DNA from: an uncultured Candidatus Saccharibacteria bacterium
Lineage (GTDB): Bacteria > Patescibacteriota > Minisyncoccia > Phycocordibacterales > UBA3531
Direction: 5' to 3'
DNA: 44,662 nt
Assembly: GCA_964361405.1 (NCBI GenBank)
Contig: CAYIAA010000006.1
Span: forward strand, 1 to 44,662
Part shown: positions 3,910 through 24,257 of the stretch, in pieces
How positions within the stretch are numbered: the stretch's first letter is position 1
How the letters are laid out: the number at the start of each line of letters is the position of its first letter
Position numbers and translations under genes: made by a program
The notes under the pieces: model-generated
Databases searched by the model: none
The model's input: the letters and a program-made list of their open reading frames with translations, nothing else
Told to the model about the DNA's origin: nothing

Positions 3910-4828
3910 AATCATATCGATTATTTCGCCTCTCGTACTCGTCGCTTCGGTATATGGGGTTGTGTATGCCAGCACTCATTTTTTGGAACCAAAACCTGTT
4001 GCCACCCCTTCCATAGAGCCGAGCACCCCGAGAGAGACCGCGGAAGGGCTTCATCGAAACGTATTCGATGGCATTGTGCTTTCCGCAAAAAGCGCGGCTG
4101 TCGTAGACCTCCGGGACGGTGCGCTTATTTTTGGACACAACGAAAAAGCACAGCTTCCACTCGCATCACTCGTAAAATTAATGACGCTTGCTACATTCCC
4201 GAGCGACCAAGAAGAAAGTACGATTACCATAGTGGAGAATTCGCTCGCTCAAGAAGGCAATAGCGGTCTCTCTCTGGGGGAGAGGTGGGACCCAAAAAAT
4301 TTAATGGCCTTAACACTTCTTAGTTCTTCGAATGATGGGGCACACGCTCTTGCCAAGAAGGGGGAGTCTGAAGAGGGTAATTTTACCCTGCGCATGAATG
4401 AAAAGGCGAAAGAGCTTAGTCTCGAACAAACCTATTTCCTGAATCCTACCGGTCTTGACCAGGGATTAGAGCTCGGTGGCGCTTATGGGTCGGCTCTCGA
4501 TATGGTGAAGCTCATGAAAGAAGTTCTTATCATGCGTCCTAAAATCCTTGAGGCAACGCGCTATGCGTCTATCGCTATTCCGAGAGAAAGAAATACCGAT
4601 ATAGTGGTAAGAAATACGAATGCGGCGGTTGAGAGTCTCCCCGGCATTATCGCGTCAAAGACAGGGTTCACGGATGCCGCGGGAGGGAATTTGGTCGTGG
4701 TAATTGAAGTGGGGCCGGGAAGACCTGTCGGAATCGCCGTCCTCGGTGCATCTCTCGAGGGCAGGTTTAGTGATGTGGAATCGCTCGCCTGGGCCCTTCT
4801 AAAGTACGTAGGAGAAGAGGGTAAGTGA
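3896..4828 (+). CDS. D-alanyl-D-alanine carboxypeptidase (peptidase S11)
   Basis: SxxK (ASLVK), SxN (SSN), NPTGL, KTGFT; N-terminal TM. Confidence 0.9.
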   Translation: MERSKIISIISPLVLVASVYGVVYASTHFLEPKPVATPSIEPSTPRETAEGLHRNVFDGIVLSAKSAAVVDLRDGALIFGHNEKAQLPLASLVKLMTLATFPSDQEESTITIVENSLAQEGNSGLSLGERWDPKNLMALTLLSSSNDGAHALAKKGESEEGNFTLRMNEKAKELSLEQTYFLNPTGLDQGLELGGAYGSALDMVKLMKEVLIMRPKILEATRYASIAIPRERNTDIVVRNTNAAVESLPGIIASKTGFTDAAGGNLVVVIEVGPGRPVGIAVLGASLEGRFSDVESLAWALLKYVGEEGK

Positions 4829-8124: not shown

Positions 8125-9487
8125 TTCAGCCTGCCTGCCGGCCAGGCAGGCCATGCCTACCGGCAGGCAGGTCGTTGTCCGCTTTGCCCCGAGTCCGACG
8201 GGCAATCTGCATATTGGGGGAGTTCGAACCGCACTTTACAATTTTCTCCACGCCCGAAAACACGGCGGCACGTTTATTCTTCGAATCGAGGATACCGACC
8301 GCGCGCGGTCACGCCCGGAATACGAGCGTGATATTTTAGAAAGCCTCGCATGGCTTGGCCTTTCTCACGATGCACTCTTTCGACAATCCGAGCGGCAAGC
8401 GATATACCGTAGCCATATCGAACGGCTCCTCGGCAAAGATATGGCATACGTAAGCGAGGAATTAAAGGATGGCATAGCGAGCTCGGTCATACGGTTCAGA
8501 AACCCTAAAAAGAGTGTTACCTTTGAGGACACTTTGCGCGGTCCCATAGCAGAAGATACAGAAGATCTGGGTGACTTTGTCATTGCTCGGGACCTTGATC
8601 AACCACTCTATCACCTTGCCGCCGTAATCGACGACTTTGAGACAGGGGTTACCCATGTAATCCGCGGTGAAGACGGCATATCGAATACCGCTCGTCAGAT
8701 ACTTCTCCAAGAGTCCCTTCAAGCCCCGCGGCCAATCTATACGCATATACCCTTAATTCTTGCCAAAGATCGCTCTAAACTCTCCAAACGCCATGGTGCC
8801 GTCTCGGCGAGTGAGTTGAAAAAAGAAGGATATTTACCTGAAGCGGTCATAAATTTTTTGGCGCTCCTCGGATGGCATCCGAAAGGGGATATGGAGTTAT
8901 TCTCAATCAATGAACTTATAGAAGAGTTTTCGCTTGAGCGAGTTCAAAAAGGAGGAGCGGTATTCGACACAGAGAAACTCAAGTGGCTTAACCGTGAATA
9001 CCTCCGTAAACTCGACCCTACGACGTTCCGAAAAGAGGCAATCGAGTACGTGCCGAAGAGTCTGCGAGAAAGCGCCAAGGCTGACCGACTCTCGGCCCTA
9101 CTTGACTCCCTCCGAGAGAGAATCAGCGTCTTTAGCGAGATAACCACTATGGGCGAGGCAGGAGAGCTTACCTACTACGTTCAAAAACCAGTCTATGACA
9201 AATCCATACTCCTTCGCGAAAGTGAAGAAGTTAAGAAAGTGACCCTCCATTTAGAAAAACTTGGGAAAATTCTCGGCTCAATCACTCCGGAACAATTTAA
9301 CGCAAAGAATATCCGTGAGTCCGTAATGCCATATGCTGAACAAGAAGGAAGAGGGAAGGTGTTGTGGCCTTTTCGTGTTGCGCTCACGGGAAAGATTCAA
9401 TCACCCGACCCATTCAGCATCTGTGAAATCCTTGGTAAGGAGGAGTCCCTTCTACGCCTCAATGAAGCACAAACATATATCGAGTAG
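8114..9487 (+). CDS. gltX: glutamyl-tRNA synthetase
   Basis: RFAPSPTGNLHIGG, LRIEDTD, VIRGED, KLSKR. Start is ATG 8114 (overlapping the murG stop) or ATG 8153. Confidence 0.96.
   Translation: MKTDSACLPARQAMPTGRQVVVRFAPSPTGNLHIGGVRTALYNFLHARKHGGTFILRIEDTDRARSRPEYERDILESLAWLGLSHDALFRQSERQAIYRSHIERLLGKDMAYVSEELKDGIASSVIRFRNPKKSVTFEDTLRGPIAEDTEDLGDFVIARDLDQPLYHLAAVIDDFETGVTHVIRGEDGISNTARQILLQESLQAPRPIYTHIPLILAKDRSKLSKRHGAVSASELKKEGYLPEAVINFLALLGWHPKGDMELFSINELIEEFSLERVQKGGAVFDTEKLKWLNREYLRKLDPTTFRKEAIEYVPKSLRESAKADRLSALLDSLRERISVFSEITTMGEAGELTYYVQKPVYDKSILLRESEEVKKVTLHLEKLGKILGSITPEQFNAKNIRESVMPYAEQEGRGKVLWPFRVALTGKIQSPDPFSICEILGKEESLLRLNEAQTYIE
8130..8171. repeat. two tandem 21-nt variants of the CCTGCCTGCCGGCAGGCAGG palindrome at the gltX N-terminus
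   Basis: CCTGCCTGCCGGCCAGGCAGG (8130-8150) plus CCATGCCTACCGGCAGGCAGG (8151-8171), compared with the perfect copy at 22599-22618. Confidence 0.85.
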
Positions 9488-22183: not shown

Positions 22184-22235
22184 AGGTTTAATTCTATTAT
22201 ATTTTTTTGGTATTGAATATCAAAGAAAACTAAAT

Positions 22236-22571
22236 CTACCTCTTTTTTGTTTTTTGAGCTTCTGTCACTGCGTTTTCAACCCATTCAGAAAGAACGTCTC
22301 GGTTTTCGAGGATTTCCTCCGGTACAAGCCAATAACTCAATGTGATGTTCTTTCTCTCCGAATAGTAGGCAAATGGCTCACTTCCCATTTTCTCATACTC
22401 CGCACGATTTCCGTTCCCCACTTTGAAATATAGTGCTCCGTCAGAAATTAGACCAAAGAACATACGATTCTTATAAATCCCCCATCCGCCAAACATAGTA
22501 CGCGACGTAATCCCCGGCACGTCTGCCAAAAGGTCCATAACATACTCATGAAAACTTGTATCCCGAGACAT
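22236..22571 (-). CDS. TfoX/Sxy N-terminal domain protein
   Basis: RTMFGGWGIY...FGLI...LYFK...PF.Y...SYWLVP..ILE. Confidence 0.88.
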   Translation of the reverse strand: MSRDTSFHEYVMDLLADVPGITSRTMFGGWGIYKNRMFFGLISDGALYFKVGNGNRAEYEKMGSEPFAYYSERKNITLSYWLVPEEILENRDVLSEWVENAVTEAQKTKKR

Positions 22572-22586
22572 TTATTTTTTTACCCA

Positions 22587-22624
22587 TGACCTTACGGGCC
22601 TGCCTGCCGGCAGGCAGGGATTCG
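22587..22624 (-). repeat. duplicated tRNA-Glu 3' end (17/18 nt identical) interrupted by a 20-bp palindrome
   Basis: TGACCTTACGGG[CCTGCCTGCCGGCAGGCAGG]GATTCG versus tRNA TGACCCTACGGGGATTCG at 22828-22845. Confidence 0.85.
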
Positions 22625-22830
22625 GTCACAACTTCCCGCTACGCGGGAGCCGCGACCCCACCATAAGGAATGCTGCCGCATGCAAGTCTAACTTATGTCA
22701 CGAATCACTAAGTCGCTTCGCTCCTAAGTGTTCGCGACCCCGGCTCGCGGTCCCACTTTTAGTGGGACATTGCTCCGCCTTCAAAAAGCTAAAAAAGTAA
22801 AGTAGTTTACTTTTTTTAATCGCTTTTTGA
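22624..22830 (-). repeat. cluster of REP-like hairpins between tRNA-Glu and its duplicated 3' end
   Basis: Hairpins at 22624-22657, 22697-22738, 22750-22768 and 22781-22830. Confidence 0.7.
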
Positions 22831-22899
22831 CCCTACGGGGATTCGAACCCCGATTCCCACCGTGAGAGGGTGATGTCCTAACCATTAGACGATAGGGCC
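22828..22899 (-). tRNA. tRNA-Glu (anticodon CTC), no encoded CCA
   Basis: GGCCCTATCGTCTAATGGTTAGGACATCACCCTCTCACGGTGGGAATCGGGGTTCGAATCCCCGTAGGGTCA folds as a cloverleaf. Confidence 0.95.
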
Positions 22900-22903
22900 C
22901 TAA

Positions 22904-22920
22904 ATCCCGCAGTGCGGGAT
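22904..22920. repeat. short perfect palindrome just upstream of tRNA-Glu
   Basis: ATCCCGCA-G-TGCGGGAT. Confidence 0.6.
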
Positions 22921-22949
22921 AGACTAATGACAAAAATAGTACCAATGCT

Positions 22950-24257
22950 CTAGCGCTTTGTCCATTCAAATTCTTGGCGGACGAGGAGTTCATGTGCGCG
23001 CTCGGGCTCCGCCATAAGCGCTTCTACTACCCGCTCCATGCGAATTATCTGCGAACCCTTCACAAGGATACTATCTCCGGACTTGAGTTCTTCCGCCGCC
23101 TTCTCCCCTGCTTCTTCAGAGCTCGCCATAAAATGAACGGAGTGTATTTTCATACCTCTCTGCACTGCCGCTTCGCCGATGAATGTCCCGCGCTGACCGA
23201 CAACGTAGAGTTCATCCAAAAAATCTGCCACAGTAGTTCCCACTTTCTCGTGTTCCGGTTTCGTATACTTGCCGAGCTCGGTCATATCTCCGAGAATGGC
23301 GATTTTTCTGCCCGTCGTTTTGAGACCACGAAGAACCTCAAGTGCATCCTCCATCGCTATGGGCGAGGCATTGTAGCTGTCGTCGAGAATTAAACTACTC
23401 TGTTTCCCGGAGATGAGTTTAAGTCGTCCGGGTGGTGCTTCGTACTTTCTAAGCGATTCAACAATAGACAAAATATCGATCCCCTCTGAAATGCCTACGG
23501 TAATCGCCGCAAGCGCCGCGTAAGCTGTACCAATTCCGAGCGCGCCGGTGATTTTAACGGGAATACTCTTTCCGTCATAGTCGACACGGAACGATATACC
23601 AGTAGGAAAAGATATGCCTGCACGCTTCGAATATGTTGTCCGTGTACCAGAACCATGAATCATGGAGTATTCCCCAAATCCATAACTCATAATATTCAAA
23701 TTATCCTGCGACTGTGCCAAATCCATTGCTCGCTCGGAGTCGGCGTTAATGACTAGAAGTCCGCCGGGCTTGAGCGCGCGTAGCAAATACCCCTTCTCCT
23801 CGTAGAGCTTCTCCGGAGACTCAAAAAATTCAACATGCACCGGGACTTCTGGAAGAAAAGTCACTACGACTGTATCGGGCTTAAGCCATCTTGATATTCG
23901 GGCAATATCGCCGGGACGATCAGCCCCTACTTCAAGCACGAGTATTTTTGGATAGTGGGTTTTCAGTATGATGAGCCCGATTCCTTCCCAAAAGACGCGG
24001 AGCCAGCGTCCAACACTCCCCCATCCGCTCTCTTCCCCAAGGATGGTGAGAGGCATGCCGAGTTCGCTGTTATAGCTCTTCCGGCTAGATCTTACGAACC
24101 GTGCCTCCGAGAGCACCTGGGCTATGGCATCTTTGGTCCCCGTCTTTCCAACGCTCCCCGTAACAGCAATAATCCTCGGCTGATATTTCCGTAACACAAG
24201 ACGGGCAAGCAATGTAAGCACGCCTTGAACTGCGATTTTGAGTACTCTTTTAAACAC
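22950..24257 (-). CDS. murF: UDP-MurNAc-tripeptide:D-Ala-D-Ala ligase
   Basis: AVTGSVGKTGTK, SYNSELGMP, LEVG, DDSYNASP, ILGDMTELG, LVKGS. Confidence 0.9.
   Translation of the reverse strand: MFKRVLKIAVQGVLTLLARLVLRKYQPRIIAVTGSVGKTGTKDAIAQVLSEARFVRSSRKSYNSELGMPLTILGEESGWGSVGRWLRVFWEGIGLIILKTHYPKILVLEVGADRPGDIARISRWLKPDTVVVTFLPEVPVHVEFFESPEKLYEEKGYLLRALKPGGLLVINADSERAMDLAQSQDNLNIMSYGFGEYSMIHGSGTRTTYSKRAGISFPTGISFRVDYDGKSIPVKITGALGIGTAYAALAAITVGISEGIDILSIVESLRKYEAPPGRLKLISGKQSSLILDDSYNASPIAMEDALEVLRGLKTTGRKIAILGDMTELGKYTKPEHEKVGTTVADFLDELYVVGQRGTFIGEAAVQRGMKIHSVHFMASSEEAGEKAAEELKSGDSILVKGSQIIRMERVVEALMAEPERAHELLVRQEFEWTKR

Follow-up and report, generated by a model that had tools for sequence, protein, structure and literature searches.

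A perfect palindrome of 20 nt, CCTGCCTGCCGGCAGGCAGG, lies beside a tRNA-Glu gene on contig C6 (CAYIAA010000006.1, assembly GCA_964361405.1) of an uncultured Candidatus Saccharibacteria bacterium, whose genome (570 kb in 9 contigs, 49% GC) is called here the source genome; "the window" is the whole stretch of 44,662 nt that was analysed. We propose, with a probability of about 0.75, that this 20-mer represents a widespread palindromic micro-insertion element without genes, one copy of which landed later in a dead duplicate of the tRNA-Glu 3' end, itself the boundary of a structured element of about 240 nt trailing the tRNA gene. The palindrome adds exactly 20 nt and duplicates no target, and its family has repeatedly gained new sites: in intergenic DNA, at gene ends, in loops of dead tRNA fragments, in other copies of the palindrome and, as a 21-nt variant, in frame within genes.

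The 3' end of tRNA-Glu(CTC) reads TGACCCTACGGGGATTCG on the plus strand (22828-22845). At 22587-22624 this 18-nt tail recurs with one mismatch and is split by the palindrome, in the order TGACCTTACGGG, CCTGCCTGCCGGCAGGCAGG, GATTCG; the 3' 11-mer of the tRNA, CCGTAGGGTCA, corresponds to CCGTAAGGTCA in the downstream copy. The net gain is exactly 20 nt and the target is not duplicated, the boundary of the insert being slidable by 1-2 bases in the flanking G run. The split tail is neither a chance resemblance nor an assembly artefact. Chance can be set aside because the 3' 11-mer of a tRNA (at most one mismatch) is found again within 500 nt downstream for 8 of the 44 tRNAs of the source genome, compared with 1 of 44 upstream, and because the palindrome pattern is matched twice in the window, where 100 shuffles give an expectation of 0.00. 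At contig level, an artefact can be set aside because contigs from two runs belonging to different studies are identical there, with 0 differences over 22200-22899 (run X1) and over 22200-22629 (run X4). Groundwater metagenomes provided the best coverage of the stretch. A first-pass annotation, made from the sequence alone, had already described the repeated tail, the palindrome at the breakpoint and the gain of 20 nt without an obvious duplication, all as found here.

That annotation had also taken the two places for the empty and the filled allele of one site, and on this point the analysis differs. The tRNA-Glu tail recurs because the far side of the trailing element is bounded by a direct repeat of the tail from T-loop to acceptor. 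The supposed empty allele is the live tRNA gene, and the filled site is, judged from sequence comparison, a decaying, paralogous boundary repeat of the trailing element and not an allele. The 255 nt from tRNA-Glu to the neighbouring TfoX_N gene fold with a z-score of -5.95 (200 shuffles). Directly before the distal tail copy, on the strand of the tRNA, stands the 12-mer GTGACCGAATCC, the conserved right end of the element, which has 17 occurrences in 12 of 41 genomes of the order (reversed control: 1). Most of these places are the right end of an element of 130-230 nt (about 240 nt in the window) located directly 3' of a tRNA gene, and the tRNAs trailed in this way are those for Tyr, Ser, Val, Arg, Glu, Gln and Asn. 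The layout begins with a hairpin, often followed by the tRNA tail in inverted orientation, joined to GGATTCGAAAGCCGGAG, and by variable hairpins; it ends with GGGGTCGCG-hairpin-YGTGAC, then CGAATCC and a direct copy of the T-stem and acceptor 3' strand of the element's own tRNA. One and the same core was found behind at least ten different tRNAs, combined each time with the tail of the tRNA in question, and tandem arrays of the element occur in genomes G033 and G040.

The state of the tail repeat after GTGAC varies, and most copies of the element other than that behind tRNA-Glu have it unbroken. In the source genome it is unbroken behind tRNA-Arg(CCT), tRNA-Tyr, tRNA-Lys and tRNA-Ala(GGC), the latter with two tandem copies, and it is broken by the palindrome behind tRNA-Glu (one copy) and behind tRNA-Ser(GCT) on contig C5 (two copies, one nested inside the other). 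Among relatives it is unbroken in G001 and G016 (Tyr) and in G014 (Ser). A metagenome contig (L041, with 81% identity to the Mur ligase) contains tRNA-Glu and the start of the trailing element, and stops before the right repeat. The stem GGUCGCG/CGUGACC of the element needs a G-U pair every time, which hints at a structure at the RNA level or one specific for one strand. No Rfam family was found in the element, and a permissive cmscan of 22480-22960 gave no match to RtT at E up to 10. The RtT repeats of tyrT are units behind a tRNA gene, each of which closes with a copy of the tRNA 3' end. The trailing element resembles RtT of E. coli tyrT (RF00391) in being a repeat behind a tRNA gene that ends in such a copy, but differs from it by another core, the lack of a match in that Rfam search and its association with many different tRNAs.

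In the source genome the palindrome belongs to a sizeable family. An edit-distance scan of the 570 kb with CCTGCCTRCCGGYAGGCAGG identified 5, 8, 6, 7 and 2 copies at 0, 1, 2, 3 and 4 edits, respectively, i.e. 19 copies at no more than two edits, and the family size can be put at 19-26. A regular-expression scan recovered 13 copies at up to two edits and 16 at up to three, against means of 0.0, 0.3 and 3.6 (at up to two, three and four edits) in ten order-3 Markov shuffles. The half-site of the palindrome is the commonest 10-mer of the genome that is not A/T-rich. On a crude map of open reading frames (ORFs) covering 91% of the genome, 13 of the 19 copies are outside ORFs, three are at gene ends and three lie deep in genes. 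A T run follows the palindrome at some copies only, and T variants read GTAG internally. The window itself contains, between two genes, a tandem pair of family members (8130-8171), of which the second supplies the start of gltX (8153-9487). The ATG at 8153 is the sole start codon among the first 40 codons of the frame read from there; the protein begins with MPTGRQ, followed by the conserved VVVRFAPSPTG, and an in-frame ATG further upstream would lead to translation of both palindrome copies. Palindrome variants with CATG are also present in G031, G001 and G139. An exact 20-mer is found inside the frame of ribosomal protein L18 (G000:C5:20833-20852, residues LPAGRQ; G000 is the source genome), followed by an A-rich stretch that is rich in Lys and Glu.

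Insertion can be seen where a broken and a whole version of the same sequence can be compared. In G019, a spare 5' fragment of tRNA-Ser consists of GGAGAGGTGCCAGAGC, the 20-mer and GGTCGAATG, and the intact gene, about 245 nt downstream, has this sequence unbroken by the 20-mer. The D-loop of a tRNA-Leu 5' fragment in G014 is filled likewise, in both cases with a gain of 20 nt and no duplication. In two unrelated genomes (L131 and L188) one unit of a tandem repeat is broken by exactly the 20-mer and the neighbouring unit is whole. Copies nested in other copies were found in the source genome (C5 48649-48690), in L144 and in L168. Target-site duplication, a feature of miniature inverted-repeat transposable elements (MITEs), was seen at none of five filled/empty pairs, each with a net gain of exactly 20 nt, and 7-nt direct repeats were found at 3 of 82 exact copies from different phyla, all in tandem-repeat contexts. 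Some types of site recur: D-loops of dead tRNAs host the 20-mer in G019, G014, L142, L156, L163 and L285, and the T-stem/acceptor junction after GTGACCGAATCC does so on contigs C6 and C5 of the source genome, in G025 and in G146. A spare 3' fragment of tRNA-Pro(CGG) in the source genome (G000:C4:39988-40044) has its T-loop broken by an imperfect hairpin of 27 nt with a different sequence.

Insertion within a coding sequence can be followed in MurD (G000:C1:3392-4813), where a 21-nt variant at C1 4030-4050 encodes LPAGKAG. These seven residues are missing from all nine best-matching orthologues, out of 25 loci, that were aligned, leaving a gap between conserved blocks. The deep in-gene copies that are not 20 nt long, in MurD and TatD, are both 21 nt and keep the frame. 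The TatD copy was dropped as an example of a clean insertion, the region being variable among 13 orthologues. Several of the MurD orthologue matches are broken between residues about 144 and 169, which suggests a second, putative lineage-specific insert at residues about 145-168.

The family is patchily distributed among relatives and extends far beyond them. With at most one mismatch allowed, 11 of 41 genomes of the order have the palindrome, as do 105 in the larger set of 401 (91 of the 362 of high quality), with up to 39 copies per genome; the reversed control pattern gave 0 in all 41 and all 401. Copy number shifts fast between related genomes. Members of the same genus differ as widely as 0 (G035) versus 20 (G146), 0, 6 and 18 (G214, G019 and G134), and 12 (G260) versus 0 in each of G105, G192, G311 and G355. 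The G146 set consists of 14 exact copies and 6 with one mismatch on a single contig of 753 kb. Beyond the order, at least 117 stretches of species-representative genomes, belonging to many phyla, contain the exact 20-mer; the calculated chance expectation in 596 Gb is about 0.5 sites. According to the record titles, the matches listed include several lineages of Patescibacteria, Omnitrophota, Planctomycetes, Gamma- and Deltaproteobacteria, Bdellovibrionales, Thermodesulfovibrionales, Chloroflexi and Bacteroidota. Cultured Bacteroidota among the matches listed are Winogradskyella, Flagellimonas, Longitalea, Flavivirga and Aquiflexum, and the copies in isolates are on large scaffolds. In addition, 35 viral stretches carry the palindrome. 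One viral contig of 29.5 kb (L274, L281, L282) has at least six dispersed exact copies, and another (L287, about 3935-4140) has a tandem array of at least ten units of 21 nt of the CCATGCCTACCGGCAGGCAGG type.

The first-pass annotation had proposed a mobile or self-propagating unit, far smaller than a MITE, for which any mobiliser would act in trans. The genome-wide and relatives' counts (19 copies, with none in shuffles; 105 of 401 genomes), the filled/empty pairs, the MurD insert, the nesting, the patchy spread and the lack of a Y1/HUH gene on contig C6 support this part of the proposal; the links it suggested to specific enzymes have fared less well, as described below.

Several observations weigh against, or fail to support, the explanation of the 20-mer as a mobile micro-insertion. 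An orthologous empty site at base level was not obtained: when 16 kb of G146 with four copies were compared with the syntenic region of G035, genes were 70-82% identical and the spacers could not be aligned. Presence/absence polymorphism at 22599-22618 was not seen either, the contigs of runs X1, X4, X6 and X7 showing no omission of the 20 nt; as contigs would hide rare variants, this speaks neither for nor against movement. The flanks of the 82 exact cross-phylum copies contain no conserved target or asymmetric head, and position -1 is A-rich (0.40) and T-poor (0.09). A flanking stem of at least 6 bp was present at only 6 of these 82 copies, versus 1.25% of 4000 control positions. Finally, the identity across phyla could reflect selection on a function and not ongoing copying. 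Targeting of hairpin tips was rejected as a general rule, being true for 6 of the 82 copies.

We consider it unlikely that the palindrome is such a selected functional site, for instance one bound by a dimeric protein, a signal for DNA uptake or related to restriction, or a bidirectional terminator, which arose by point mutation or recombination. The strong bias towards gene boundaries and the sequence identity across phyla would agree with a function, as would the centre of the palindrome, which reads as restriction-like palindromes of the GCCGGC/CCGG type; furthermore, hairpin repeats bound by the Ssn nucleases discussed below modulate transformation in Neisseria, according to PMC11893778. 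However, the gain of whole units of exactly 20 or 21 nt, the nesting, the tandem pairs and the copies in coding sequences are unlike the evolution of binding sites, a T run follows only some of the copies, and copy number within one genus ranges between 0 and 20. The density of about one copy per 25-30 kb is also much lower than that of DNA-uptake signals, which are far denser.

Equally, and with slightly less probability still, the hairpin might be a built-in, selected stem-loop of the trailing element, serving in processing, termination or as structural RNA, with the T-stem/acceptor junction acting as a slot for variable hairpins and no insertion having taken place. Other trailing elements indeed have other hairpins at this junction (L030 and L037 in their inverted left copy, L025 in its right copy), and in G146 one element has the palindrome in its first variable hairpin slot and another has it immediately after GTGACCGAATC; the far better folding of the 255-nt region than of its shuffles points the same way. 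Yet the identical 20-mer is found in quite unrelated contexts, such as the L18 gene, gene tails and other phyla, as well as MurD and the gltX start, and most trailing repeats of the source genome have no hairpin at this place. Tolerance of such a slot accounts for the places where copies survive, and not for the origin of their sequence.

It is very unlikely that the repeated tail represents the attL/attR pair of a tyrosine-integrase element that entered the T-loop of tRNA-Glu, with the palindrome as part or scar of the recombination site. Islands that integrate in tRNA genes have a direct repeat from the T-loop to the tRNA 3' end, as is the case here, and the tandem arrays in G033 and G040 could be taken in the same sense. 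Against this, no integrase gene is located nearby, the only tyrosine recombinase of the genome being encoded on another contig, and the "island" between the repeats is about 240 nt long and gene-free. The same core stands behind at least ten tRNAs, each with its own tail, and the palindrome is mostly found away from tRNAs. Chance resemblance or an assembly or sequencing error is a negligible alternative: GC-rich palindromes can break or mis-join short-read assemblies, and the X4 contig ends at 22629, directly past the palindrome, but the assembly is identical in two studies, shuffles yield no matches, cultured isolates carry copies and the 21-nt MurD variant keeps the frame.

If the 20-mer is a micro-insertion element, it may be copied as a single-stranded DNA hairpin, and a trans-acting enzyme would paste this hairpin into DNA that is single-stranded or structured. 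One candidate for this enzyme is the RAYT (REP-associated tyrosine transposase, where REP stands for repetitive extragenic palindrome), a Y1-type nuclease. The window contains no Y1/HUH gene, in agreement with the first-pass annotation, which had noted no transposase or HUH nuclease gene there. The single Y1/HUH gene of the source genome, its only Y1_Tnp match, is on contig C5 (G000:C5:57749-58512; L011 1238-2001); it is RAYT-like and has 242 codons, and its NCBIfam match to REP-associated tyrosine transposase is weak and below threshold. This gene is flanked on both sides by a different palindrome, TGTCAAGGGttcCCCTTGACA, which forms a second palindrome family (four perfect copies), and 12 Y1 loci of relatives have other palindromes or none, with CCTGCC in none of them. 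The co-occurrence suggested earlier was not found: Y1_Tnp matches occur in 8 of 11 genomes with the palindrome and in 18 of 30 without it, and G029 has seven copies of the palindrome and no Y1 match. The RAYT was rejected as the cognate enzyme on the grounds of these different flanking palindromes and the lack of co-occurrence, and a mobiliser of this type is improbable. A reverse transcriptase, the other enzyme that had been suggested, was rejected as well (4 of 11 palindrome-bearing versus 11 of 30 palindrome-free genomes), and RVT_1 has no match in the source genome. No ORF between two palindrome half-sites, as expected of an autonomous form, was present in the 2.2 Mb examined.

The nearest published system is that of the Ssn nucleases with their NTS/SRM repeats (Chenal et al. 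2025). As described in the part of that paper (PMC11893778) available here, Ssn proteins are small single-domain GIY-YIG nucleases that cut single-stranded DNA beside dispersed hairpin repeats of 20-50 nt, named NTS/SRM. These repeats often flank the ssn gene, and in the same part of the text a unit NTS-ssnA-NTS resembling an insertion sequence (IS) is raised and not shown; nor is spreading by Ssn of its own repeats shown there. The words tRNA, Patescibacteria and Bacteroid- have 0 occurrences each in the paper. The 20-mer partly resembles the Ssn repeats, in that at least five unrelated genomes or contigs have it immediately upstream of a small GIY-YIG ORF (at 17-30 nt in G014:C6, G019:C2 and G260:C1, and in a like arrangement in L163 (WWE3) and the viral L285), never on both sides of the gene. 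It differs from them by the absence of a directional flank and by the abundance of GIY-YIG genes in palindrome-free genomes too. Small GIY-YIG genes were found in 18 of 18 palindrome-bearing and 28 of 37 palindrome-free genomes, a weak contrast, as the genomes are related and were not chosen at random. The source genome has three such genes, and a duplicated tRNA 5' fragment or inverted repeats surround each of them (Table 1). One of the small, tRNA-linked, single-domain GIY-YIG nucleases (Ssn-like) is a tentative candidate for the mobiliser, at clearly less than an even chance; the balance of the probability falls to another protein, or to host replication and repair.

A number of findings count against the GIY-YIG candidate in particular. 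None of the three genes in the source genome is flanked by the 20-mer, and G041 and G150 have nine and four small GIY-YIG genes, respectively, and are both palindrome-free. Of 80 cross-phylum loci, 74 lack a GIY-YIG gene within 8 kb. A search among 14 sequences for a GIY-YIG clade restricted to the neighbours of the palindrome found none, identities being 23-47%. The published degenerate SRM motif (HGTCWY head) overlaps 0 of 19 palindrome copies. The adjacency may arise simply from both features lodging in dead tRNA fragments; small GIY-YIG genes are often beside the 20-mer, yet are not sufficient for its presence. The SRM motif is not enriched in the source genome (one match, versus 1-7 in five Markov shuffles).

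Two other kinds of hairpin were noted in the source genome. A third palindrome family, CACTTGGAAGC-ttc/gaa-GCTTCCAAGTG, has nine perfect copies (e.g. C4:62887-62921 and C5:35656-35692), and its arms resemble the inverted repeats (CCCCTCACTTGGGATGG...) that enclose the GIY-YIG cassette at tRNA-Ala, so that it looks as if it were an ORF-less derivative of this cassette. In the window, a hairpin ATCCCGCAgTGCGGGAT at 22904-22920 lies directly upstream of tRNA-Glu, and four more AATCCCGC...GCGGGATT hairpins exist in the genome; their arms recall the dRS3/NTS core ATTCCC[N8]GGGAAT quoted in PMC11893778.

Table 1. Features of the palindrome site, of the tRNA-trailing element and of related loci in the source genome (positions without prefix refer to the window)
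Feature	Position	Strand	Remarks
Inserted 20-nt perfect palindrome CCTGCCTGCCGGCAGGCAGG	22599-22618	.	Sequence reading; pattern scan; edit-distance scan
Distal copy of tRNA-Glu acceptor 3' strand and T-stem end; left plus-strand flank of insert, TGACCTTACGGG	22587-22598	-	One mismatch to the gene
Right flank GATTCG (22619-22624), running into GGATTCGGTCAC (22618-22629), the reverse complement of GTGACCGAATCC	22619-22629	-	
tRNA-Glu(CTC)	22828-22899	-	ARAGORN and Rfam; 3' end is the uninterrupted reference
Body of tRNA-trailing structured element	22625-22827	-	Fold z-score; homologues 3' of tRNAs in 12/41 order genomes
AT-rich hairpin adjoining tRNA-Glu	22783-22827		
Degenerate left core of trailing element	22768-22782		
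Hairpin of trailing element	22750-22768		
Two GGGGTCGCG-hairpin-YGTGAC modules	22698-22742 and 22625-22659		
TfoX_N-domain gene	22236-22571	-	Start codon 27 nt from palindrome; mere neighbour
21-nt family copy, one extra central base	8130-8150	.	First of tandem pair
Second tandem copy, CCATGCC... variant	8151-8171	+	Gives gltX start codon at 8153 and residues MPTGRQ
Further trailing element	G000:C5 about 48620-48860		
Further trailing element	G000:C3 about 70030-70185		
GIY-YIG gene beside tRNA-Ala	G000:C4:32483-32862		About 85-90 codons; duplicated tRNA 5' fragment upstream; enclosed by perfect 21-nt inverted repeats
GIY-YIG gene beside tRNA-Lys	G000:C3:70186-70640		About 85-90 codons; duplicated tRNA 5' fragment upstream
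GIY-YIG gene beside tRNA-Gln	G000:C2:92350-92667		About 85-90 codons

REP/RAYT, MITE, IS200-type elements, Rickettsia palindromic elements (RPEs), integrase att sites and RtT each fail at least one of the defining features that were tested. REP and REPIN sequences are alike in being short, GC-rich hairpin repeats, mostly extragenic, with tens of copies and no target duplication, and REPs are thought to be moved in trans as single-stranded DNA hairpins, as proposed here for the 20-mer. The latter differs, however, by its perfect symmetry, by the lack of a conserved GTAG/CGTC head outside the stem and of any Y1 gene flanked by it (in the source genome and at the 12 loci of relatives), and by having one sequence common to many phyla. 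Elements of the IS200/IS605 type share the absence of a duplication but have a fixed tetra- or pentanucleotide target, which the 20-mer lacks, and compared with a MITE it is far smaller and without target-site duplication. RPEs are palindromic repeats of about 100-150 bp that are inserted in frame and translated within housekeeping genes of one lineage; the MurD copy resembles them in being translated in frame inside a gene, but the palindrome is only 20-21 nt and cosmopolitan. The mobile GC clusters and palindromic repeats of organelle genomes are tiny GC-rich palindromes, which proliferate in genomes of higher AT content and insert into genes as well as into one another. They are similar to the 20-mer in size, GC richness and self-invasion, and differ in being organellar and lineage-specific; we know of no sequence that they have in common with it. 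Substring searches with decamers and 12-mers found no paper printing the palindrome or its halves in a bacterial context, the supplementary SRM lists of PMC11893778 being outside that search, and literature searches on RAYT/REP in the Candidate Phyla Radiation (CPR) and on palindromic repeats in Patescibacteria gave nothing on this element.

In its most far-reaching form, which we offer as speculative, the 20-mer would be the smallest free-moving genetic element yet seen: a bare, cargo-less hairpin. Excised or copied in the form of a single-stranded oligonucleotide, it would be joined into nicks or loops where DNA is structured, with a preference for dead tRNA loops, other hairpins and its own tip; small tRNA-dwelling GIY-YIG nucleases would be the enzymes, and phages the carriers between phyla. 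If this is true, insertion in spare tRNA copies would also protect the nuclease cassettes by breaking direct repeats that could delete them.

Compared with REPs, NTS/SRM repeats and RPEs, the element is a symmetric 20-mer that has no cargo, head or target duplication, and one identical sequence is found in ultra-small CPR bacteria, cultured Bacteroidota and phage contigs alike. It has remodelled essential genes, by seven residues in MurD, the start codon of gltX and C-terminal tails, and it marks the spare tRNA fragments that two other, undescribed tRNA-dwelling elements produce. The family puts a lower bound on the size at which DNA can behave as mobile, and offers a concrete substrate for the question left by the Ssn paper, namely whether small GIY-YIG nucleases acting on single-stranded DNA spread their own hairpins.

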